Shown here: piece by piece, positions 8,785 to 60,376 of the stretch
Numbering within the stretch: the first letter of the stretch is position 1
How the letters are laid out: every line of letters starts with the position of its first letter
The notes under the pieces: model-generated
Told to the model about the DNA's origin: nothing
The model's input: the letters and a program-made list of their open reading frames with translations, nothing else
Database searches by the model: none
Position numbers and translations under genes: made by a program
NCBI GenBank assembly: GCA_964536205.1
Contig: CAZHVT010000003.1
Location: 12,271-72,897, forward strand
From: an uncultured Gammaproteobacteria bacterium
GTDB lineage: Bacteria > Patescibacteriota > Patescibacteriia > Magasanikbacterales > GCA-002688135
Direction: 5' to 3'
Length of the DNA: 60,627 bases

Positions 8785-8793
8785 CACCAACGC

Positions 8794-8830
8794 GTCATCC
8801 TGAGCTTGTCGAAGGATCTCGTGAGGATGC
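8794..8830. repeat. GTCATCC-family palindromic repeat (GTCATCCTGAGCTTGTCGAAGGATCTCGTGAGGATGC)
   Basis: Related copies at 35365-35438, 60462-60494 and 18712-18749. Confidence 0.7.
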
Positions 8831-8903
8831 AAAATTAAAAATGTAACATCAAAAATCAAAAACACAGATTTAAGATTAAAAATTTTCGCGTTTTGCAATG
8901 CTC

Positions 8904-8941
8904 AATCAACTGTCATTGCGAGGAGGAACGACGAAGCAATC
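8904..8941. repeat. GTCATTGCGAGGAGG(A/T)ACGACGAAGCAATC repeat (variant B), immediately upstream of the NUDIX gene
   Basis: Near-identical copy at 13137-13174. Confidence 0.7.
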
Positions 8942-8944
8942 TAT

Positions 8945-9394
8945 ATGGAAATACAAAGACCAAAAGTAGGATTGGGAGTTATGGTGATGAAAGAAGGAAA
9001 AGTTTTGTTGGGCAAACGACGTGGTGCTCATGGTGAAGGACAGTATGCATGGCCAGGAGGGCATATGGAATATATGGAGAGTTTTGAACAATGTGCAAAA
9101 AGAGAGGTTATGGAAGAGGCTGGGATTGAGATTCAGAATGTGCGTTTTTTGCGAGTGATGAATTTGGTGCAATATGCGCCCAAGCATTACGTTGATATTG
9201 GATTGATGTGTGAATGGAAGTCTGGGGAAGTTCGTGTGTGTGAACCAGATCGTTGTGAGAGTTGGGCGTGGTATGATATTGATGATTTACCTCGTCCTCT
9301 ATTTCATACTATTGAATCATATATCGAAGCTTACAGAACTGGAAAGAATTTTTTTGACTATGAATATCAAAAAGAAAAGGAAGTGGTGATGTAG
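8945..9394 (+). CDS. NUDIX hydrolase
   Basis: Nudix box GGHMEYMESFEQCAKREVMEEAGI (GX5EX7REUXEEXGU). Confidence 0.85.
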   Translation: MEIQRPKVGLGVMVMKEGKVLLGKRRGAHGEGQYAWPGGHMEYMESFEQCAKREVMEEAGIEIQNVRFLRVMNLVQYAPKHYVDIGLMCEWKSGEVRVCEPDRCESWAWYDIDDLPRPLFHTIESYIEAYRTGKNFFDYEYQKEKEVVM

Positions 9395-9450
9395 TTTTGA
9401 ATTTTGAATTGTGGTTTTTAATTTTTAGCTTTGAGTTTTGATTTAATAAG

Positions 9451-9497
9451 GGATCCCTCGACTGCGCTCGGGATGACAATGGGGCGCTCGGGATGAC
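9451..9497. repeat. GTCATCCCGAGCG..GAGGGATCC-type repeat (reverse orientation) plus partial tandem duplicate GCGCTCGGGATGACAATGG x2
   Basis: Direct read. Confidence 0.65.
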
Positions 9498-9506
9498 AAT
9501 GGAAAT

Positions 9507-10541: not shown

Positions 10542-10549
10542 TAATACAT

Positions 10550-10622
10550 GTCATCCCGGCGTAGGCCGGGATCCATCTTGCTAAACAGCATGGATCCCGG
10601 CCTACGCCGGGATGACTTTTTT
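10550..10622 (+). terminator. 67-bp perfect palindrome made of two inverted GTCATCCCGGCGTAGGCCGGGATCC repeat units, followed by a T6 tract; nrdB terminator
   Basis: GTCATCCCGGCGTAGGCCGGGATCCAT..ATGGATCCCGGCCTACGCCGGGATGAC then TTTTTT. Confidence 0.7.
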
Positions 10623-13136: not shown

Positions 13137-13208
13137 CATCAACTGTCATTGCGAGGAGGTACGACGAAGCAATCTATCAACATGGATCCCGGCCTTCGCC
13201 GGGATGAC
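13137..13208. repeat. Two adjacent repeats: variant B (GTCATTGCGAGGAGGTACGACGAAGCAATC) and variant C (CATGGATCCCGGCCTTCGCCGGGATGAC)
   Basis: Compare 8904-8941 and 10550-10616. Confidence 0.7.
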
Positions 13209-13219
13209 AAGGAGAGGAT

Positions 13220-18357: not shown

Positions 18358-19938
18358 TTACGAACCGTCAACAACTTTACCTCCAAATGTTTTGAGGACT
18401 TCTGCGACAGCTTTGTCTGATTCATCTGCTTGCGCCTCATTAACTGTTGTTTCGATGGTGATTGTTGTGTTGTATGTGTCTGTCAGGGCTTTGTGAATCA
18501 TTTCGCGCACTTGTGGTTCATCGATTCGTTTTTTGTGGAATTCGTAGGGGAATGAGAGGGTGAGTTTGTTTTGTTCGATGTTTGTTGGTTTGCATGTTTT
18601 GATGATGAGGGGGAGTGAGTGATTGTATGTGTGGAGATGTTCGATGAATGTACTCCAATTTTTTTGGATGGCAGGGAGTTCTAGTAATTCATTGTTTTGT
18701 GTCGTACTCTCGGGATCCTTCGACTTCGTTTCACTTCGCTCAGGATGACTCGTTGGTGCGGGTGCTTGCACGATTTCTTGATTTTTTGTTTTCTCGTTTT
18801 TTTGTTCACCAGATTTCTCGTTTTCTCGATTTTTTGATTTCTCGACAAAATTTTCAGCGCCAAGTGCGATTTCAACAGCAGACATTTCAAGCGGAAGATG
18901 AATAATGGGGGAGAGTCCGATTTCACGTCGTCGTTTTATTAAAATATCGAGTGTTGATAATAATCGATGAGTCTCTGTGCTATCTGCAATTTCTTGCAAC
19001 TTTTCTTTGTCTGTTGCATTGAAAAATGAATTTCCTACAGATTTTGTGGATTTGAGTAAAAGTAGTGCTCGAACAATGTCGATTGCGTCATCAATCACAT
19101 GGGGGATATTTGCTCCAGTTTCAATTATTTCGTGCAATGCTTTTAGGCTTTGCTGTGCTTCACCTTGTAATGCATGATTCAAATATGCGATGAGTTGTTC
19201 GTTTTTTCGGGTTGGTAATACAGCTTCTGCATCTTTTGATGTCACGGTTTTGTCTTTTGCGACTGCTATGATTTGTCCTAACAAGCTTTCACCATCACGC
19301 ATTGAACCTTGTGCGCGCCATGCAATGTGATCGAGGATTTCATCATCAATTGTTAAGCCCTCTTTTTTTAATAAGTCTGATAATCGATTTTTTATATCTG
19401 CTGATCCGATGTGTTTAAAAATGAATTGTTGGCATCGTGAAATAATTGTTGCGGGGACTTTGTGGGCTTCTGTGGTTGCCATCACAAAAATTGCATGAGC
19501 TGGTGGTTCTTCGATTGTTTTGAGTAATGCGTTAAATGCGCTGGCGGAAAGCATGTGAACCTCATCGATGATGAAGACTTTGTATTTTGAGGATGTTGGG
19601 GTGAAGCGCGCGTTTTCAATGATGTTTTCACGGACATTGTCTACGCCGGTGTGAGATGCAGCATCAATTTCAATGACGTCTATGGATTGTCCTTTTGCGA
19701 TGGTTGTGCAGCTTTCGCATTCATTGCACGGTTCTGCGGATTTTTCTTTTTTATTTTTACAGTTGAGTGATTTTGCGAGAAGTCGAGCAGAAGTTGTTTT
19801 TCCAACTCCGCGTGGTCCGCAAAATAAAAAAGCCGCAGCGAGCGAACCAGAAATAATTTCTTGGGTGAGTGTTTGTGAAACGTGGGGTTGTGCGATGAGA
19901 TCTGTCCATTGTTGAGGGCGGTGTGTTCGGTGAAGCAT
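18358..19938 (-). CDS. dnaX: DNA polymerase III subunit gamma/tau
   Basis: GPRGVGKTT Walker A, Cys cluster CKNKKEKSAEPCNECESC, clamp-loader motifs. Confidence 0.9.
   Translation of the reverse strand: MLHRTHRPQQWTDLIAQPHVSQTLTQEIISGSLAAAFLFCGPRGVGKTTSARLLAKSLNCKNKKEKSAEPCNECESCTTIAKGQSIDVIEIDAASHTGVDNVRENIIENARFTPTSSKYKVFIIDEVHMLSASAFNALLKTIEEPPAHAIFVMATTEAHKVPATIISRCQQFIFKHIGSADIKNRLSDLLKKEGLTIDDEILDHIAWRAQGSMRDGESLLGQIIAVAKDKTVTSKDAEAVLPTRKNEQLIAYLNHALQGEAQQSLKALHEIIETGANIPHVIDDAIDIVRALLLLKSTKSVGNSFFNATDKEKLQEIADSTETHRLLSTLDILIKRRREIGLSPIIHLPLEMSAVEIALGAENFVEKSKNRENEKSGEQKNEKTKNQEIVQAPAPTSHPERSETKSKDPESTTQNNELLELPAIQKNWSTFIEHLHTYNHSLPLIIKTCKPTNIEQNKLTLSFPYEFHKKRIDEPQVREMIHKALTDTYNTTITIETTVNEAQADESDKAVAEVLKTFGGKVVDGS
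18712..18749. repeat. GTCATCCTGAGCGAAGTGAAACGAAGTCGAAGGATCCC repeat inside the dnaX coding sequence (encodes ..SHPERSETKSKDPES..)
   Basis: Same repeat family as the intergenic copies; reading frame maintained. Confidence 0.7.
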
Positions 19939-19946
19939 AAATTTTT

Positions 19947-20064
19947 AGTAAAGCGTAATGAGTAAAGTGTAATGTGGGTAGCAGAGTCGCCATAGGCGAC
20001 ATATTAATACGTCGCCTATGGCGACACTTTTTTACTCGTTACGCTTTACTCATTACGCGTTACG
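19947..20064. repeat. About 118-bp compound palindrome between dnaX and the upstream gene: GTAAAGCGTAATGAGTAAAG arms, twin GTCGCC(A/T)TAGGCGAC palindromes, T6
   Basis: Direct read; likely terminator of 20060-20842 plus a regulatory region of dnaX. Confidence 0.6.
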
Positions 20065-20842
20065 AGTCGGCTTGTATTGTAACTGCTTCTCTTGTCTTGG
20101 TAAAGCTCTGTATCGTTTCTGTTGTGATATACTCGTTTGGTGAAGACTTAATTGCACGTTCGGCTGCGATGAGTTCTTCTTCGTTATCAATCTCAAGCCA
20201 GCCATGTCCTGAAATATCGCCGATGCGTACTTCGTGATTTTCGTTTGCAAGCTGTGCAAGAATTCCTTCTACGGCGATTGTTCCGTCTGAATCTTTATAC
20301 AGTTTGTTTGCGGTGTTTCGGTATAGTGAAAGTTTTGATTTGTCGATGTATGTCATTCCAACATATCCGTTTGTCCAGTGTGTGAGTTTTTTTGAAATTT
20401 CTTTGACGTTGTTTCCGTAGCGTTCAACTTTCATATCATCTGTTCCGAGTACTCGGTCTGTATCGCAAAATGCGGTGATGCCAAAACATTGTTTTTTGAT
20501 AATTGGTGCTATTGATCTTTTGTAAATGTGATCTGAATTTACGATAAGTATTGAATCATCTACATGAGGGAGCGCGGTCAATAATGTACCGAGATTTCCT
20601 TTTGTTACATCATCAATTTTTAGGAATGTTGTGTCTGGTGCTTTTTTGTCGAGATATGAGCGGACTTTTTCTGCTTCAAAACCCCCCACAACAATAATAT
20701 GATCCACGCCAATATCTCTCAAAAAATTTAATACATAATCAAAAAGAGGTCGGCCGTCCGCCTCAACTAATCCTTTTGTTCTGTCGTGTGTGTATGGTTT
20801 GAGTCGCATGCCGCGACCTGCTGCGAGTAGAATCGCTGTCAT
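20060..20842 (-). CDS. Sugar-phosphate nucleotidyltransferase (NTP-transferase fold)
   Basis: N-terminal LAAGRGMRLKP motif; Rossmann-like. Confidence 0.7.
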   Translation of the reverse strand: MTAILLAAGRGMRLKPYTHDRTKGLVEADGRPLFDYVLNFLRDIGVDHIIVVGGFEAEKVRSYLDKKAPDTTFLKIDDVTKGNLGTLLTALPHVDDSILIVNSDHIYKRSIAPIIKKQCFGITAFCDTDRVLGTDDMKVERYGNNVKEISKKLTHWTNGYVGMTYIDKSKLSLYRNTANKLYKDSDGTIAVEGILAQLANENHEVRIGDISGHGWLEIDNEEELIAAERAIKSSPNEYITTETIQSFTKTREAVTIQADS

Positions 20843-20878
20843 ATTTGAAATTTGGTAACTGGTAACTCGGATAACTAG

Positions 20879-21517
20879 TTACGAAATGATATTTTCAATC
20901 GCACCCCATTGAGACGGAGAATCTTGTGGGACGAGAATGATTGCGCTGTCTCCAACAGTTCCTTTATAAAATGTGACTGATGCTGTGAGGACGTTGTATG
21001 TTTTTCCGTCGACGTGCACTCCATATTGTTTGCTTTCTTGATCGTATACGATAATGCCTTGTAGTCGCGCGCGTTCAGTTGGTCCGATTTGTTTGAAAAC
21101 GTATGCGCCTAGTTTTGTGATAGTGAGTTTCATCATGTCACCTTCCACCAATTTTGATTTTGATGCGTAGTTTGGTGGGATGTTGTATCTTTTTCCGTCA
21201 GCCCCGATCATTTGTTGTCCATCGAAAACTCCTTCAATAATTGTTCCGTCGATTGGTTCTGCATCTTCAAGATTGATGGATGGTTTTGTGTTGAAGTTTG
21301 TTTGTGGTACAGAAGAATCGTCATCCAATAGTTTTGCGACATTTAATAGTTTGCTCGAAATATCACGAAGTGCCTCCCGAACAATTGTCATTTTTTGATC
21401 GTTTTGTTGTGGTGCTGGTGTTGTTGCTTCGGGCTCTTTTGTCTTTGTTGCTTCAAACCCAGAAAATGCCGCTCCTCCTAAAATTTCTGTGATTTTTGAA
21501 AATTGTTTGTTTTCCAT
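20879..21517 (-). CDS. Hypothetical protein (212 aa)
   Basis: ORF only. Confidence 0.45.
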   Translation of the reverse strand: MENKQFSKITEILGGAAFSGFEATKTKEPEATTPAPQQNDQKMTIVREALRDISSKLLNVAKLLDDDSSVPQTNFNTKPSINLEDAEPIDGTIIEGVFDGQQMIGADGKRYNIPPNYASKSKLVEGDMMKLTITKLGAYVFKQIGPTERARLQGIIVYDQESKQYGVHVDGKTYNVLTASVTFYKGTVGDSAIILVPQDSPSQWGAIENIIS

Positions 21518-24593: not shown

Positions 24594-24675
24594 AAACTAT
24601 GAATCAGGAAATATGAATCATGAATTATAGATTATCCATAGTATAGCATAAAAAAATATGTTATACTTGCTATCT

Positions 24676-29933: not shown

Positions 29934-29954
29934 ATATGTCAATAATCTAGAGAT

Positions 29955-29979
29955 GGATTCCCGCCTTCGCGGGAATGAC
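29955..29979. repeat. GGATTCCCGCCTTCGCGGGAATGAC repeat (GTCAT-family variant) in the pilM leader
   Basis: Hairpin CCCGCCTTCGCGGG with the GTCAT-like terminus. Confidence 0.55.
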
Positions 29980-31925: not shown

Positions 31926-32045
31926 ATTGAATGCAATGATCAAGTACCAAATTCCAAATAACAGACAAATCTCAAATACGAAATTTTACATTCCAAAGCT
32001 TGCGGCCTCGTGTTTGTGAGTTGAGATTTAGTATTTGTTTGAAAA

Positions 32046-34912
<2,867 letters not shown>

Positions 34913-35355: not shown

Positions 35356-35364
35356 CATCAACGT

Positions 35365-35438
35365 GTCATCCTGAGCTTGTCGAAGGATATCGTGAGGAAT
35401 TTTGATGGGATCCTTCGACTGAAAACGCTCAGGATGAC
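35365..35438. repeat. Inverted pair of GTCATCCTGAGC..CGAAGGATATC / GGGATCCTTCGA..GCTCAGGATGAC repeats between gatC and gatA
   Basis: Direct read; the long ORF-track start of gatA runs through it. Confidence 0.7.
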
Positions 35439-36879: not shown

Positions 36880-37565
36880 GTGAAGAATTTTTGAATAAGT
36901 GTCCGTTACCTCCTGCAATGGAGTTTCGTCTGAAGACGAATCAGAGATTGGATTTGATTCGACAAGAATTTGAAGATGGATTTGCGTTTTTATATCCGTT
37001 TAAGCATGAGATTACTATTTTTGGATCAGCTCGTTTTAAAGAAGATCATAAATATTATAAGATGGCGCGCGGATTGGCTAAGCAGTTGGGTGAAGAAGGT
37101 TATACGATTATTACTGGTGGTGGTCCGGGAATTATGGAGGCGGCGAATCGAGGTGCGACGGAAGCCGGTGCGCCTTCTGTTGGATTAAATATTGAGTTAC
37201 CGATGGAACAACGTGTGAATCCGTATGTTGATGAAGATAAATCGATGGGATTTCATTATTTCTTTTCACGTAAAGTTATGTTGTCGGCGGCTTCTCAAGC
37301 ATATATTGCGTTTCCTGGAGGTTTTGGAACGATGGATGAATTGTTTGAGATGATTACGTTAATTCAAACGAAGAAAATGGAGCGCGTTCCGATTATTTTG
37401 GTCGGACATGAATTTTGGAAGCCGTTGTTAGATTGGATTTCAAGTGAAATGCGTGATGATGAAAAAACGATTTCTCCGGAAGATTTGGATTTGTTTACGT
37501 TGGTTGAATCAAATGAGGAGGCGATGGAGATTGTGCGGACGACTTCGGAGAGAAAGATATTTTAG
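36876..37565 (+). CDS. LOG-family (TIGR00730) protein
   Basis: GGGPGIMEAANRGA and PGGFGTMDELFE motifs. Confidence 0.8.
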   Translation: MSEEFLNKCPLPPAMEFRLKTNQRLDLIRQEFEDGFAFLYPFKHEITIFGSARFKEDHKYYKMARGLAKQLGEEGYTIITGGGPGIMEAANRGATEAGAPSVGLNIELPMEQRVNPYVDEDKSMGFHYFFSRKVMLSAASQAYIAFPGGFGTMDELFEMITLIQTKKMERVPIILVGHEFWKPLLDWISSEMRDDEKTISPEDLDLFTLVESNEEAMEIVRTTSERKIF

Positions 37566-37581
37566 ATAGTATTTCGTATAT

Positions 37582-37633
37582 AGTATGTAGTATGTGGTAT
37601 TCAGCAACCTCACGAGGTTACATACTACATACT
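37582..37633. repeat. Perfect 14-bp inverted repeat AGTATGTAGTATGT / ACATACTACATACT enclosing a second 6-bp hairpin AACCTCACGAGGTT
   Basis: Direct read; between the LOG gene and lgt. Confidence 0.6.
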
Positions 37634-37652
37634 ACATACCATATACCAAAAA

Positions 37653-45448: not shown

Positions 45449-45451
45449 GTA

Positions 45452-45503
45452 AGCGATTAGCGATTAGAGGGTGCTGTCTACTAATCGCTAAACACTAAAC
45501 GCT
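45452..45503. repeat. TAGCGATTAG / CTAATCGCTAAAC hairpin (11-bp stem, 13-nt loop) + TAAACGC repeats abutting the 45511 ATG
   Basis: Direct read. Confidence 0.65.
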
Positions 45504-45510
45504 GTACGCT

Positions 45511-46020
45511 ATGAAAAAAGGATTTACATTAGTAGAAACAATAATTTATATCGGCATTATTAGTATTGTGCTTGTTGCGTTTGTTCGTTTTGTATTGAGT
45601 ATTTCAACAGCGCGTGAAAAGAATTTTGTTGTTGCTGAAGTGCAGGATCAAGCTCGGCATGCTATGGATGTGTTGGGGCAGCGTATTCGATTGGCTGATA
45701 GTATTTTAACTGCATCGTCCACATTTGATGTTGATCCGAGTGTTTTGGCTTTGACGATGACGTCATCAACAATTAATCCGACAGTATTTCAATTGACGGC
45801 TGATAATGGAATTTTGCAAATTACAGAAGGATCCGGAAGTGCGGTTTCTATTACGGGTGATAATTTGCGTGTGACAAGGTTTTTAGTGACTGATACAACT
45901 TCCAGTTCTCCTCGTGGAAGTGCACATGTATATTTAGAAGTTGAGTATAATAATTTGTCAGGGGATCCTCGTTTGGATTTTTCTCAGGAATTTCAAACAA
46001 CCATGGGTTTGAGACAATAG
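45511..46020 (+). CDS. Pilin-like / minor pilin (prepilin N-terminus KKG|FTLVETIIYIGIISIVLVA)
   Basis: Class III signal motif. Confidence 0.65.
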   Translation: MKKGFTLVETIIYIGIISIVLVAFVRFVLSISTAREKNFVVAEVQDQARHAMDVLGQRIRLADSILTASSTFDVDPSVLALTMTSSTINPTVFQLTADNGILQITEGSGSAVSITGDNLRVTRFLVTDTTSSSPRGSAHVYLEVEYNNLSGDPRLDFSQEFQTTMGLRQ

Positions 46021-46021
46021 A

Positions 46022-46105
46022 AATTAGCGATTAGCGTGAAGCGTTTAGCGATTAGTAGGCAGTACCCTCTAATCGCTAAACGCTAAAAGCTAAACGCTAA
46101 ACGCT
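46022..46105. repeat. Hairpin AGCGTTTAGCGATTAG-loop-CTAATCGCTAAACGCT (16-bp perfect stem) in an array of TAGCGAT/TAAACGC heptamers
   Basis: Loop is the near reverse complement of the 45452 loop, so the unit occurs in both orientations. Confidence 0.7.
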
Positions 46106-46111
46106 TTCCTC

Positions 46112-46531: not shown

Positions 46532-46537
46532 AAACAA

Positions 46538-46606
46538 GGGATTAGCGTTTAGCATTTGGCGTTTAGAAAGCAGCCTCTAATCGCTAAATGCTAATCGCTA
46601 AACGCT
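46538..46606. repeat. Imperfect long hairpin of TAGCGTTTAGCATTTGGCGTTTAG / CTAATCGCTAAATGCTAATCGCTAAACGC abutting the 46614 ATG
   Basis: Direct read. Confidence 0.6.
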
Positions 46607-46613
46607 TTCATCT

Positions 46614-48995: not shown

Positions 48996-49010
48996 ATGAA
49001 CAAGAAATAT

Positions 49011-49541
49011 ATGAGTGACCAAACGCTAAATGCTAAACGCTTAAAGCTAAACGCTCAAAAGGGTTTTACCTTAATCGAGCTTTTAATTGTAGTAGCAATT
49101 ATTGCAATTCTTGCGGCTGTTGTTTTTGTTGCACTTGATCCTTTGAAGCGTTTTCAAGATTCCAGAGATTCCTCTCGCTGGCATGACATCGCAGAATTAT
49201 CAACAGCGATTAAATTACATCAAGTTGATAATGGAGGATATTATGCGACATCAATTCGTGATTTAGCGACATCCAGTGTGTATATGATTGGTGAGGGAAA
49301 TAGTGGATGTGATGATCAGAATGAATATTGTGCAACAAATGTGAACGGTGATAGTTTGTGTACTGAATTACCTGAAATTTTGAGTGGTGGTCAGATTGCC
49401 GCTTTGCCACAAAGTCCTAATGGAAATGCGTCATGGTCAGCGATTTATACTGGTTATACTATTCAAAAATCCATCACCAATAGTATTACTATTCGAGCAT
49501 GTGAGAAAGAGAATTCAACTGAAATTTTCATGACAAAATAG
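49011..49541 (+). CDS. Type IV pilin paralog (leader MSDQTLNAKRLKLNAQKG|FTLIELLIVVAIIAILAAV); alternative ATG at 48996
   Basis: Prepilin motif; the leader is encoded by TAAACGC-type repeats. Confidence 0.75.
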   Translation: MSDQTLNAKRLKLNAQKGFTLIELLIVVAIIAILAAVVFVALDPLKRFQDSRDSSRWHDIAELSTAIKLHQVDNGGYYATSIRDLATSSVYMIGEGNSGCDDQNEYCATNVNGDSLCTELPEILSGGQIAALPQSPNGNASWSAIYTGYTIQKSITNSITIRACEKENSTEIFMTK

Positions 49542-54670: not shown

Positions 54671-55345
54671 TTATGCGTTTGGCTTAATTGTTTTATATTC
54701 ACCTGTTTTGAGTTTTCCTAATTCGAATGGACCGATGTGTGTGCGTTTGAGATGTTCCACATTGAATCCGAGTTTTTCCATCAGTCTTCGTACAATTCGT
54801 TTTTGACCTTCATGAATAACGAGTTTTATTTTTGCAGATGATATTTGTTCAACGCTATCTGGCGTTATTTTTTTCCCGCCAACTTCGATGCCTTTTTTTA
54901 ATGTGCTGAAAGATTTTTCATCAAATGGACGATCAACTACCACTTCGTATGTTTTAAAGATGTTGAATTTTGGGTGCATGATTGAGTTTGCCCAATCGCC
55001 GTCATTGGTTAAAAGTATCAATCCTTCTGTGTCCATATCTAATCTTCCGACCGTAAATACGCGTGGTTTTTCTGGAACTAAACTTAATACATTTTTTCGT
55101 CCCTTTTCATCTGATGCGGTGCATAAAATTCCACGAGGTTTGTTGAGGGCGTAATAAACAAATTCTTTTTTTGGTACAATGGATTCTCCTCGAACCTGGA
55201 TATTATCAATTTCTGGGTCGGCTTTTTCACCAATTTGCGCGCGTATTCCATTTACCGTAACATGACCTTGATTGATCAGGTCTTCGGCTTTTCGTCGGGA
55301 TGTGATTCCCGCTTGGGCGATAATTTTTTGTAGACGTTGTTTCAT
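54671..55345 (-). CDS. rluB: Pseudouridine synthase (RsuA/RluB family) with S4 domain
   Basis: S4 motif GITSRRKAEDLI and catalytic GRLDMDTEGLILLTNDG. Confidence 0.8.
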   Translation of the reverse strand: MKQRLQKIIAQAGITSRRKAEDLINQGHVTVNGIRAQIGEKADPEIDNIQVRGESIVPKKEFVYYALNKPRGILCTASDEKGRKNVLSLVPEKPRVFTVGRLDMDTEGLILLTNDGDWANSIMHPKFNIFKTYEVVVDRPFDEKSFSTLKKGIEVGGKKITPDSVEQISSAKIKLVIHEGQKRIVRRLMEKLGFNVEHLKRTHIGPFELGKLKTGEYKTIKPNA

Positions 55346-55351
55346 ATGAAT

Positions 55352-55435
55352 TCGTAAAGTGTAATGAGTAAGGCGTAAAGCGTTTGTATGTGGTATTGTC
55401 GAGATCGCATTACGCATTACGCTTTACGCATTACG
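55352..55435. repeat. Inverted CGTAAAGTGTAATGAGTAAGGCGTAAAGCG / CGCATTACGCATTACGCTTTACGCATTACG arms flanking TGTATGTGGTATTGT in the rluB-dnaG divergent region
   Basis: Same motif family as 19947-20064. Confidence 0.6.
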
Positions 55436-55437
55436 AT

Positions 55438-57162
55438 ATGTCATCCGACCCACAAATACAACAGATCAAGGAAAAACTCGATTTAGTCGAGCTTATCTCC
55501 GAGTACGTGCAACTCAACCGGTCTGGAAACTATTTTAAAGCACGGTGCCCTTTTCATCAAGAGAAGACGCCGAGTTTTATGGTTTCGCCAGATCGGGATC
55601 GGTGGCATTGTTTTGGGTGTTCTGAAGGTGGAGATGGTTTTACGTTTTTGCAGAAGATAGAAGGATTGGATTTTCCTGAGGCACTTTCGGCGTTGGCGCA
55701 GAGAACGGGAGTTGTTTTGAAGAAGCGATCCCCGCAGGATAAGAAACAGCATGATGCATTGCAGCGAGTGTATAATTGTTTGTTTGATGCAGCGCAGGTG
55801 TATCAGACTATTTTGCGGGACGCAGATGGCGCGCAGGAAGCGCGTGCATATGTGGAATCTCGTGGGGTGACTGGTGAGACACAAGCTGCGTTTATGGTGG
55901 GTTTTGCGCCGGAGAAATGGGATGTGTTGTATAAAACACTTTCAAAGCGTGGGTATGATGTTTCAGATTTATTGCAGGCTGGTTTGGTGATAAAAGGTGA
56001 TCGGGGATATTATGATCGATTTCGTGATCGGATTATGTTTCCAATTTTTGATCATCATGGGCGGGTGGCTGGATTTACAGGAAGGATGTTGCATAATACA
56101 CAAAAGGGCGGGAAGTATGTGAATACCCCGCAAACCCCTGTGTTTGATAAAAGCCGTTTGTTGTATGGATTGGATCGCGCTGCGCAATCAATTCGCAAGG
56201 TGGGGGAGGCGATTATTGTTGAGGGGCAAATGGATGTGATTGCATCGCATCAAGCGGGGATTCAAAATACTGTTGCATCTTCTGGAACAGCTTTGGGGGA
56301 GGCTCAATTAAAATTGTTGAAACGTTATGCAACGAAATTGAAGATGGCGTTTGATACAGACGAGGCGGGGCAAAAGGCGGCGCGTCGGGGAATTGAGTTG
56401 GCTTTATCGTTAGGATTTGAAGTTTTTGTTATTGAATTGAAAAGTGAAGATGGAAAAGATCCTGATGATTGTATTTCTAAAAGCGTTGATGTGTGGAAAC
56501 AGCGGGTTGATGAAGCGATTCCATTTGTTGCGTGGGCGATCAATATGGCGGTTGCGAATTTTGATATTTCAAGTGCGCGTGGAAAGAAATTAGCTTCTGA
56601 CGATGTAATGGGATTGATTGTGACATTGCCTTCGGCGATCGAGCAGGATCATTGGATGCGATCACTTTCTAGTCGATTATCTATTGATTTGGATGTATTG
56701 CGTAGTGAGTATGGAAGTAAGGTTTCCAAAAAAGTGCCAGTTCAGAAGCAAAAAGTAGAGAAACGGCAGTCGGGGAAGAAAAATCCGTTTGTATTGCTTT
56801 TGGCTTTGTTTATTAGGTTAGATTTAGATAAAGCGTTGCTGGATGAGTTTGATGAGCAATGTTATCCACAGGCATATCATCCACTTGTTAATTTTGTGAA
56901 AACAGGATATACTGATGACACTACAATTGAAATTAGCAATGTTTTGTTGATGCGCGTCGAGTTGGCGTATCCATCATTTTCAACTGAACAGCTTCATGAT
57001 GAGTTTTCTCGCGTGAAATCATATTGTTCGCAACAGTTACTCCAACGACGAATTGCAAGCATTGCACATCATATACGCGACGCGGAAGCGCGTGGCGATA
57101 ACGATCGGGTCGCTCAATTGCTAGAAGTGTATACATCACTTCGTCAAAAAAGCGGGGCGTAG
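55438..57162 (+). CDS. dnaG: DNA primase
   Basis: CPFHQEKTPSF..CFGC zinc-binding motif, TOPRIM (EGQMDV..D.D). Confidence 0.9.
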   Translation: MSSDPQIQQIKEKLDLVELISEYVQLNRSGNYFKARCPFHQEKTPSFMVSPDRDRWHCFGCSEGGDGFTFLQKIEGLDFPEALSALAQRTGVVLKKRSPQDKKQHDALQRVYNCLFDAAQVYQTILRDADGAQEARAYVESRGVTGETQAAFMVGFAPEKWDVLYKTLSKRGYDVSDLLQAGLVIKGDRGYYDRFRDRIMFPIFDHHGRVAGFTGRMLHNTQKGGKYVNTPQTPVFDKSRLLYGLDRAAQSIRKVGEAIIVEGQMDVIASHQAGIQNTVASSGTALGEAQLKLLKRYATKLKMAFDTDEAGQKAARRGIELALSLGFEVFVIELKSEDGKDPDDCISKSVDVWKQRVDEAIPFVAWAINMAVANFDISSARGKKLASDDVMGLIVTLPSAIEQDHWMRSLSSRLSIDLDVLRSEYGSKVSKKVPVQKQKVEKRQSGKKNPFVLLLALFIRLDLDKALLDEFDEQCYPQAYHPLVNFVKTGYTDDTTIEISNVLLMRVELAYPSFSTEQLHDEFSRVKSYCSQQLLQRRIASIAHHIRDAEARGDNDRVAQLLEVYTSLRQKSGA

Positions 57163-58891: not shown

Positions 58892-60376
58892 ATGTTTAAA
58901 AAGAAACAAGAAGGGGGGGCGGCGAAACCTGCTCCTGCAGCACCTGCGCCGGCAGCTCCAACTGGAGTTGGGATTGCAACGCGTGTTGGTATGTCTACTG
59001 GCGTAAAGGTGTTGATTGGGGTTTTGGTGAGTGTGTTTATTGTTGGTGGAGGGATTGCTGCGTTCATGTTTTTTCGTGTGCCGCCACATCAACCACAGGA
59101 TCCGCAGACATTCTTGTTTCAATCATTTGAACAATTGATTTTGGCTGATGATGTGAGATTTACTTTGGCAGCTCCTGGGGAAACATTGGCTGCGTTGGCT
59201 GGTGATAATGCGGAGGCTGTAGATGAGCTTGGTGTGAAGCCCGCAGATTATACTTTGGGATTGACGCTCGATTTGGTTCAGGTTGATGAGAAGCGTATGG
59301 ATGCTGGCATGATGTTGAGTTTATTACCAAAATCTGGTGAAACTGGTTTTGAGTTGAATACGCGCCTTGTAGATGAGGATTTATATTTTCAATTGGCTCG
59401 TTTGAATTTTCCTGCGATTCCGTTTGCTTTAGATACAATATTGGGAAAATGGGTTGATTTGAATTTTGATGAAGTACAAGAAGAGATCAATTCTTTATTG
59501 GGAACAACAACAGATGAAGAGTCATTGAATCCAGAAGATTATGTGTATCCAGATGTGAAAAAGACGCTTGAGCGTGTGCGGGATATTTATTTGGCGGCGC
59601 CTGCGCTGGATTTGACGTTAGTTGCAGAAGATCAAAATACCGGTTTGGTGACATTGCAAGTAGAATCGAATGATCAGACGAAGGCGTTTATTGTTGATGC
59701 TATTGTTGAGGCATATGTAACATATTTGGAGGCAGTTGATGTTGCGATTAAAGAGAAGGATGCAGTTGGAGAAACAAAGCAGGTTACTGCATTGAAGAAC
59801 TATAAATCGACGTTAGTAGATGAAAATGGTGCGAAAGGAGAATTATTAAGAGTAGAGTTAGATCGTGAGATTGATTTGGATGATTCGTATGGACCAGATT
59901 CTCCATTGGTTGATGTGCAGACAATGTTGACATTGAATGTGAATACTGGACATTTAACACAGATTAAATATGTGTTGGTGTTTAAGGATGGAGTTGTTCG
60001 TCCGCCAATTGTTGGAATGTGGGGTGGATATAATGCGGGGAATGTCATTCAGCGGCCGATAGGTGCGATGTCCGTAGAAGAGTTTTTTGAACTTATTGAA
60101 GAGATGTTTGATGGCGGTGAAGAGGAGGTTATTGAGTCTGATGTTGAATTTGATGTTGTAACTCCTTCGGTTGATACGGATGGCGATGCGTTGAGTGATT
60201 TTGATGAGATGAATATTCATAAGACGGATATCAATAAAGTTGATACTGATGGTGATGCATTGGATGATTTTCTTGAGGTGAATATCTATAAGACTGATCC
60301 GTTGAATGCAGATACAGATGGCGATGGTTTTGCAGATGGAGTTGAGGTTGAAAATGGATATAATCCGTTGAAGTAG
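58892..60376 (+). CDS. Membrane-anchored hypothetical protein with C-terminal thrombospondin-type-3-like Ca-binding repeats (DTDGDALSDFDE x3)
   Basis: N-terminal Ala/Pro-rich segment + TM; three DxDxDG repeats at the C-terminus. Confidence 0.5.
   Translation: MFKKKQEGGAAKPAPAAPAPAAPTGVGIATRVGMSTGVKVLIGVLVSVFIVGGGIAAFMFFRVPPHQPQDPQTFLFQSFEQLILADDVRFTLAAPGETLAALAGDNAEAVDELGVKPADYTLGLTLDLVQVDEKRMDAGMMLSLLPKSGETGFELNTRLVDEDLYFQLARLNFPAIPFALDTILGKWVDLNFDEVQEEINSLLGTTTDEESLNPEDYVYPDVKKTLERVRDIYLAAPALDLTLVAEDQNTGLVTLQVESNDQTKAFIVDAIVEAYVTYLEAVDVAIKEKDAVGETKQVTALKNYKSTLVDENGAKGELLRVELDREIDLDDSYGPDSPLVDVQTMLTLNVNTGHLTQIKYVLVFKDGVVRPPIVGMWGGYNAGNVIQRPIGAMSVEEFFELIEEMFDGGEEEVIESDVEFDVVTPSVDTDGDALSDFDEMNIHKTDINKVDTDGDALDDFLEVNIYKTDPLNADTDGDGFADGVEVENGYNPLK

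Follow-up and report, generated by a model that had tools for sequence, protein, structure and literature searches.

Heptanucleotide-repeat palindromes fill the spacers upstream of dnaX and dnaG in a Patescibacterium

We analysed a stretch of 60,627 nt with 41% G+C (hereafter the window), in which genes were identified via Pfam and whose host was assigned to Patescibacteria from DnaX homologues. Two related elements are the subject of this work, one located upstream of dnaX and the other between an rluB-like gene and dnaG. Both loci are inverted arrays of 4-5 tandem heptamers with the unit GTAAWGN. They are probably heptanucleotide-repeat palindromes, i.e., new members, in Patescibacteria, of the class represented by the STRR sequences, and not replication operators; our confidence in any specific function is much lower. 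The elements are rapidly turning-over, lineage-specific fillers of intergenic spacers, whose arms start at the stop codon of the preceding gene and reach to within 1-15 nt of the next start codon. As to the presence of GTAAWG at both dnaX and dnaG, we infer two copies of one sub-family and not common regulation.

The dnaX gene (18358-19938, minus strand) is preceded on the same strand by an NTP-transferase gene (20060-20842). The spacer from the stop of the latter to the start of dnaX holds a 116-nt palindrome, described as near-perfect, with arms of 58 nt each (19948-20005 and 20006-20063) that are 81% complementary and directly adjoin each other. The left arm carries four tandem heptamers (AGTAAAG, CGTAATG, AGTAAAG, and TGTAATG; 19947-19974), with the G-richer form on the plus strand. 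The right arm carries five (TTTACTC, GTTACGC, TTTACTC, ATTACGC, and GTTACG; 20031-20064), the outermost of which contains the TAA stop codon (20060-20062) of the NTP-transferase gene. Nested at the center is another palindrome (19986-20025) composed of two 15-nt hairpins, arranged as GTCGCCATAGGCGAC, ATATTAATAC, and GTCGCCTATGGCGAC. The second hairpin is followed on the plus strand by a T-run, and this terminator-like site is antisense to the flanking genes. Within the window, the central GTCGCC...GGCGAC palindrome occurs at the dnaX locus only and is not a dispersed motif. The sense transcript of dnaX is predicted to form a hairpin of -66.1 kcal/mol (z -13.9). A contig of the same population (L121, from JGI 3300009376, 8058 nt) ends inside this palindrome, at window position 20055, which suggests that the repeat interrupts short-read assembly. 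Two other contigs (L135 and L136) begin inside rluB and cross the dnaG palindrome intact.

The rluB-like gene (54671-55345, minus strand, with its real ATG at 55345) is divergent from dnaG (55438-57162, plus strand), which is followed by rpoD. The entire spacer between them is a palindrome of GTAAWGN heptamers. Its arms (55352-55382 and 55406-55436) are 31 nt each, 81% complementary, and separated by a 23-nt spacer containing TTTGTATGTGGTATTGT. The left arm (CGTAAAG, TGTAATG, AGTAAGG, and CGTAAAG) has its outer end at a distance of 7 nt from the start codon of rluB, and the right arm (CATTACG, CATTACG, CTTTACG, and CATTACG) stops 1 nt short of the dnaG ATG, with no Shine-Dalgarno sequence. The spacer (55383-55405) harbors on the plus strand an extended -10-like TGTGGTATTGT at 55389-55399; it is homologous to a promoter-like GCGTTTAGTATTGTGTATTATATT upstream of dnaG in a relative (L122) and matches the TGTGGTATAAT-type promoters of the clade. 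The hairpin predicted for the dnaG transcript has an energy of -32.6 kcal/mol. TRF reports period-7 rows at 19947-19972, 20032-20064, 55353-55383, and 55406-55435. Outside the consensus of the unit, homology of the dnaX copy with the dnaG copy was considered and rejected, as only 3/7 variable positions agree, about the level of chance. Consensus terminator and promoter scans did not explain the arms. Rfam 15 returned three tRNAs only for the whole window at the gathering score, and only sub-threshold hairpin look-alikes for 19850-20950 when hits were taken by E-value.

The initial annotation had noticed a compound palindrome before dnaX, related inverted arms around a -10-like sequence in the rluB-dnaG region, and an unusual motif shared by the two loci. 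The palindrome and the arms (55352-55436) are borne out by the structures described above, and the sharing is real. The two-unit pattern GTAAWGNGTAAWG, allowing up to one mismatch, has 13 matches in the window, 12 of which fall within the dnaX and dnaG loci, while 100 dinucleotide shuffles gave 0.94±1.0 matches and none of them reached 13. The two loci belong to a broader class. Strong periodic windows in the 60 kb have periods 7 and 14 only, plus one at period 12, and autocorrelation peaks at lags 7, 14, and 21 are present in non-coding DNA and absent from coding DNA. A simple detector found 24 heptamer arrays (21 of them intergenic) against 6.2±2.0 in dinucleotide shuffles, and the majority of the arrays are paired into palindromes. 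At least seven other intergenic spacers, neighboring lgt, pilin genes, pilM, a prepilin peptidase gene, and a HerA-like ATPase gene, have the same kind of architecture built from unrelated units, and at least seven distinct units occur within 60 kb. Across the elements, the predicted hairpins range from -20 to -66 kcal/mol. GTAAWG arrays were not found at ligA, nrdA, and nrdB of the window, which are replication-linked as well, and the 8.6 kb extending the window (joined via an exact protein match) contain no further arrays.

We then compared the two loci with those of the closest distinct relative (contigs L122 and L128), whose DnaG, DnaX, RluB, and NTP-transferase are 86%, 72%, 67%, and 75% identical to those of the window and whose gene order is the same. 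The comparison shows no conservation of the motif: both arrays are absent at the orthologous dnaX (L128) and dnaG (L122) sites, and the GTAAWG motif is absent from the dnaG upstream regions of L122-L127. In L128, only 20 nt separate dnaX from the NTP-transferase gene. The rluB-dnaG spacer of L122 contains other, G/C-rich hairpins, yet the promoter core is kept. These hairpins, CCCCTCCCTTTCAGGGAGGGG and CCTCCCCTTTAAAAAGGGGAGG (L122 2640-2770), stand in place of the heptamer arrays of the window; one spacer therefore hosts different palindromes in different lineages. The relative's GCGTTTAGTATTGTGTATTATATT, the counterpart of GCGTTTGTATGTGGTATTGT at dnaG in the window, lies 8 nt from the dnaG ATG, whereas four heptamers (28 nt) separate GCGTTTGTATGTGGTATTGT from the ATG in the window. 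This suggests that the dnaG mRNA of the relative may be leaderless, and that one arm of the palindrome turned a probably leaderless dnaG into a leadered gene.

About 23 kb of the closest relative contain one heptamer array in total (ACCCTAC x4). It lies in the leader of the HerA-like gene in L128, at the same place where the window has TGATTCA and where a third relative (L132) has no array. In a more distant relative (L131, 55%), a heptamer palindrome is again found upstream of dnaX, and its arms (TTAGCTT/AAGCTAA) are made of an unrelated unit. This family has six copies in 11 kb with conserved arms and variable loops, and several copies adjoin a promoter-like TATGTGGTATACT. As zero pairs in the six copies are changed on both sides, covariation gives no evidence for or against a selected hairpin. 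Hence, architecture and preferred position recur, and the sequence does not. Array turnover is complete at about 80% nucleotide identity, and on this comparison the two GTAAWG elements are to be regarded as recent, lineage-specific gains.

The GTAAWG unit is widespread in other genomes. The pattern (GTAAWGN)x3 is present in at least 120 genome records from Cyanobacteria, Bacteroidota, Chloroflexota, Acidobacteriota, and others, and arrays with this unit are common in cyanobacterial genomes. Inverted pairs of GTAAWG type are located at atpA|atpG and atpB|atpF of another Patescibacterium, at aspartokinase|asd of an Anaerolineales genome, at ggt|cstA of a Poribacterium, near an uncharacterised open reading frame (ORF) of an Omnitrophota genome, and between structural genes of a phage contig. 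The idea that GTAAWG arrays generally adjoin start codons in other phyla was rejected, as about 13% lie within 40 nt of one. In the viral contigs from IMG/VR (L140 and L141), a tailed-phage contig has five or more inverted heptamer pairs, with units resembling GTAATGC/GCATTAC, among its structural genes, e.g., at L140 2760-2850, 2031-2154, 7459-7573, 11889-11986, and 13107-13272. In the ATP synthase operon of the other Patescibacterium (L118), two homologous heptamer palindromes are found at 3070-3141 and 5510-5597. The units of the left arm shift gradually from GGTAAAG to GGGAAAG, and the right arm repeats this left-to-right sequence of units as complements, unit by unit, whereas a true hairpin would have them reversed.

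The remaining arrays of the window are as follows. Between a LOG-like gene and lgt, a TAGTATG/CATACTA palindrome (37563-37650; predicted hairpin -34 kcal/mol) has TGTGGTATTCA at the boundary of its left arm and loop. Three TTAGCGW/WCGCTAA palindromes are located at 45449-45512, upstream of a pilin-like gene, at 46016-46109 (4+5 units; -43.4 kcal/mol), and at 46537-46607, upstream of a pilM-like gene (-35.9 kcal/mol); the loop of the first is inverted with respect to that of the second. An unpaired CGCTAAA array of about five units (49018-49059, plus strand) lies downstream of the promoter GTGTGATATAAT and inside a prepilin ORF. It codes for most of an unusually long type IV prepilin leader peptide, MNKKYMSDQTLNAKRLKLNAQKG|FTLIELL (48996-49130), and the repeat seems to have been absorbed into the prepilin coding sequence. 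The 5' leader preceding the HerA/DUF87-like gene contains, downstream of TATGCTATACT, a TGATTCA array (x3-4; 24598-24635, minus strand). Inverted arrays of CCAAAT.. and ..ATTTGGTCA (31939-32076) separate a pilin gene from the prepilin peptidase gene, and this is the sole pair in the window in which the C-richer arm comes first. An AAAATCA-type array (8829-8886) and a TTTTGAA-type array (9390-9444) flank a NUDIX gene (8945-9394) in inverted orientation. Transposition of the NUDIX gene was rejected because it shares only 28% identity with the NUDIX gene at the matching place in the relative. Between a 212-aa gene and the NTP-transferase gene, a mini-array (GGTAACT, GGTAACT, CGGATAAC, and TAGTTACG; 20854-20883) forms a partial palindrome. 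The string GGTAACTGG, previously taken as related to the dnaX motif, is this heptamer mini-array; its location is 20854-20883 instead of 20845-20878, and the unit GGTAACT differs. Integron attC sites and DNA-uptake sequences were rejected on sequence, as there are no GTTRRRY cores and no integrase, and the units vary by locus.

We next inspected the polarity of inverted pairs in the window and all non-redundant fetched loci (L001-L141), which make up a small, cyanobacteria-rich sample. Inverted pairs number 60, made up of 120 of the 585 heptamer arrays, and their median spacer is 19 nt. These pairs come from 43 loci of Cyanobacteria, Bacteroidota, Chloroflexota, Acidobacteriota, Patescibacteria, Omnitrophota, and the phage contig. 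Read on either strand, the 5' arm is G-richer in 55 pairs and C-richer in the other five (p=1e-11), and the corresponding ratio for generic inverted repeats in the same DNA is 323:281 (p=0.095). No selection artefact was seen, because the loci were picked by a strand-symmetric pattern. The bias is present irrespective of whether the flanking ORFs are tandem, divergent, or convergent. Its presence between convergent ORFs means that it does not simply reflect a need for G-poor leaders.

Several known systems resemble the elements described here. Cyanobacterial STRR sequences, including the hupS-hupL hairpins, likewise consist of tandem 7-bp units in intergenic or intercistronic DNA, form hairpins, and occupy many loci per genome; transcript stability or translational coupling has been suggested as their role (PMC2670836). 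Different from STRR, the present host is a small-genome Patescibacterium, and its arrays are mostly palindromes filling the stop-to-start spacer, with at least seven units per 60 kb. The GGGAATC heptamers of Xanthomonas (Rehm et al. 2015) form intergenic arrays of typically about four units, including 70-75 closely spaced inverted pairs that are all 'convergent', and vary in length and sequence among related genomes (PMC4692102). The 'convergent' orientation appears to correspond to the G-richer-first polarity observed here. In contrast to GGGAATC, the present units are AT-rich, diverse, unable to form a G-quadruplex, and not kept in the closest relative. The TAACTGA repeats of marine Beggiatoaceae (MacGregor 2015) form arrays directly before start codons, in spacers with no canonical ribosome-binding site; the genes that follow have unrelated functions, and the distribution is patchy across phyla (PMC4679880). 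They comprise 169 direct sets and one indirect set of a single unit (PMC4679880), whereas inverted pairs and many units dominate here. REP and REPIN sequences are likewise short, intergenic, imperfect, multi-copy palindromes that form hairpins in DNA or RNA. However, REPINs are not 7-periodic inside, are near-identical over their full length, and are linked to RAYT genes, while here the loops vary and the window has no RAYT gene.

How heptamer palindromes would come to fill these spacers can be outlined as follows. Arrays may arise via slipped-strand amplification of a local 7-nt seed; a slipped-strand origin is the explanation that Mrázek and colleagues put forward for heptamer repeats being generally in excess (summarised in PMC4679880 and PMC4692102). 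Palindromes could then form by inverted duplication or by arm-to-arm homogenisation. Arrays would persist only where expression is unharmed, namely in spacers before Shine-Dalgarno-independent genes. The ten genes preceded by arrays show no Shine-Dalgarno complementarity, with a mean duplex energy of +1.0 kcal/mol compared with -3.3 kcal/mol for the others (p=1.7e-5), and the dnaX and dnaG orthologues in the closest relative are likewise without Shine-Dalgarno sequences. Once in place, arrays would become part of the leader or intercistronic RNA. A transcript starting upstream of the spacer would include both arms and might fold into a long imperfect hairpin, serving as a generic processing signal, a stability element, or a read-through barrier; such roles are discussed for the STRR hairpins of hupS-hupL (PMC2670836). 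Clade promoters are of the extended -10 type (TGTGnTATAAT), and such a sequence is located between the arms at dnaG and lgt. A transcript starting in the spacer at these two genes would retain just one arm, G-poor and free of start codons, and its leader would be unstructured and lack a Shine-Dalgarno sequence.

Some observations weigh against the repeat-palindrome interpretation. The exact GTAAWG unit is found in the 60-kb window only at two loci, both adjoining replication genes; this placement is unlikely by chance if random, as judged post hoc with n=2. The mismatches between arms are not clearly compensated. The window population was assembled in three JGI samples at 99.8-99.98% identity, and the arrays show no copy-number differences among the three or four contigs of this identity, so the hypervariability typical of simple sequence repeats is not demonstrated. 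The G-richer-first polarity across phyla is unexplained by simple slippage.

An alternative assigns the start-proximal arrays a role in translation. They would be leaders that offer multivalent docking to a single-strand RNA-binding protein of the S1 or cold-shock-domain type, whose footprint would be about 7 nt, and thereby replace the Shine-Dalgarno sequence, with the distal arm as an anti-leader that sequesters them in read-through transcripts. The arrays do end 1-15 nt before start codons, the genes behind them lack Shine-Dalgarno sequences, and the start-proximal arm is mostly the G-poor form. Besides, the arms at dnaG and lgt enclose a promoter-like sequence, arrays recur at one leader with unrelated units, and a like proposal has been made for the TAACTGA repeats (PMC4679880). 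Nevertheless, the relative's orthologues have neither Shine-Dalgarno sequences nor arrays, and arrays are therefore not required. The units are too diverse for one sequence-specific protein, the G-richer-first polarity also occurs between convergent genes where no start codon follows, and in other phyla GTAAWG arrays are rarely near start codons. We thus regard this role as unlikely.

The elements could also be non-autonomous mobile elements of REPIN or MITE type, with the heptamer arrays as terminal inverted repeats and a transposase encoded elsewhere. The two GTAAWG copies, the three to four CGCTAAA copies with homologous loops in either orientation, and the six-copy family in 11 kb of L131 are in line with this idea, and so are the insertion-like appearance of the elements with respect to the relative and the end of L121 inside the dnaX palindrome, as is seen at dispersed repeats. 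However, none of the roughly 50 ORFs in the window has a transposase or RAYT domain, and no target-site duplications are evident. The units differ by locus, and orthologous leaders carry unrelated units, which favors local birth. Different from MITE copies, the L131 family has conserved arms but not conserved loops, and the CGCTAAA copies are clustered within 3.6 kb. A mobile origin is accordingly quite improbable.

The polarity bias raises another possibility, to which we give similarly little weight: the inverted heptamer pairs, including those at dnaX and dnaG, would be traces left by a directional process that many phyla share, and not by random slippage. The G-richer-first order is expected if a break or hairpin receives repeats at the 3' end of either side before the two ends are joined, and the variable loop may be the junction. 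Alternatively, strong selection may act on which arm comes first in the transcript. On this reading, each element would mark an event of repair or insertion, or else a generic RNA signal working in both directions. If the polarity rule holds genome-wide, it constrains how heptamer repeats arise.

It is very improbable that the elements are transcription terminators or attenuators separating adjacent genes. Their predicted hairpins are very stable and directly follow stop codons, the central hairpin and T-run at dnaX score as terminator-like, and a role in pausing or termination has been considered for STRR hairpins (PMC2670836). But the heptamer arms are not followed by U-runs, and the only terminator-like site (20011-20025, plus strand) is antisense to both genes, with none at the dnaG locus. 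Ordinary terminators with a GC stem and a T-run exist elsewhere in the genome, the dnaG element is between divergent starts with nothing to terminate, and the relative's dnaX is operon-like behind its upstream gene with a 20-nt spacer.

The least tenable explanation is that the GTAAWG arrays are operators or iteron-like sites for a single regulator that coordinates dnaX with dnaG and may have a replication or cell-cycle link; the two places of the unit beside replication genes and the resemblance of inverted repeated units to multi-site operators speak for it, but the arrays are conserved at neither orthologous site of the closest relative, the same architecture with other units is found at unrelated genes, ligA, nrdA, and nrdB lack the motif, the dnaX element overlaps the NTP-transferase stop codon, the dnaG element equally abuts rluB, and in other genomes inverted GTAAWG arrays lie beside atp, asd, cstA, and phage genes. 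Judged on conservation and on specificity within the window, a replication regulon fails, and one confined to this lineage keeps a small probability. No candidate for a cognate DNA-binding regulator was identified. Such a regulator, which the initial annotation had suggested, thus finds no support, given the unrelated neighbors and the absence of the arrays in the closest relative. The expectation that the motif would be rarer at unrelated genes does not hold for the repeat class or for the GTAAWG unit, considering the window and the other genomes. The second suggestion made there, a repeat family with promoter preference, is essentially right, as the heptamer class occupies promoter, leader, and intercistronic spacers.

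Aside from the heptamer arrays, the window contains other repeats. G/C-rich, REP-like palindromic repeats (GTCATCCCGGCGTAGGCCGGGATCC, TGTCATTGCGAGGAGGWACGACGAAGCAATCT, GCGCTCGGGATGACAATGG x2, and CGTGTCATCCTGAGC) co-occupy spacers with heptamer arrays; REP-like repeats are located at 8793-8830, 8909-8941, 9464-9502, 10548-10620, 13143-13210, 29950-29974, and 35362-35376. Another dispersed repeat, about 55-65 nt long and made of two hairpins (TGATGTTGATGT..CCACATCAGATAA..CCCGAGCGAGCGTACTCGCTCGG), is found at 1-55, 502-556, 1347-1401, and 5075-5129, at the ends of several uncharacterised minus-strand genes, with more copies in L137. A 79-nt repeat (TTTGTAATGA.CGTTTTATCTGACAATGAACTTCATTATCAGGTGAAACGCCCGAACC...GGTTCGGGG) has three copies (3134-3212, 3960-4038, and 5056-5134) with a GC hairpin at the end, and may represent a terminator module or encode a small RNA. 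The 69-nt tandem repeat at 60170-60326 (about 2.2 copies) lies in a gene for a TSP3-repeat protein and is ordinary repeat-protein coding sequence. The gene at 1408-3063 (minus strand) encodes a 551-aa protein with domains of the eukaryote-type major vault protein (MVP), namely MVP_shoulder (5e-28), Vault_3, Vault_4, and Vault_2, plus Band_7/SPFH. Its product is an MVP-like protein in a Patescibacterium.

The tempting lead of a shared replication regulator is thereby removed, as evidence for one is absent. More broadly, the reduced Patescibacterial genome gives many of its short spacers to heptamer palindromes, at the positions usually taken by ribosome-binding sites. This organism is hence a compact natural test case for the role of heptanucleotide repeats such as STRR and similar sequences.

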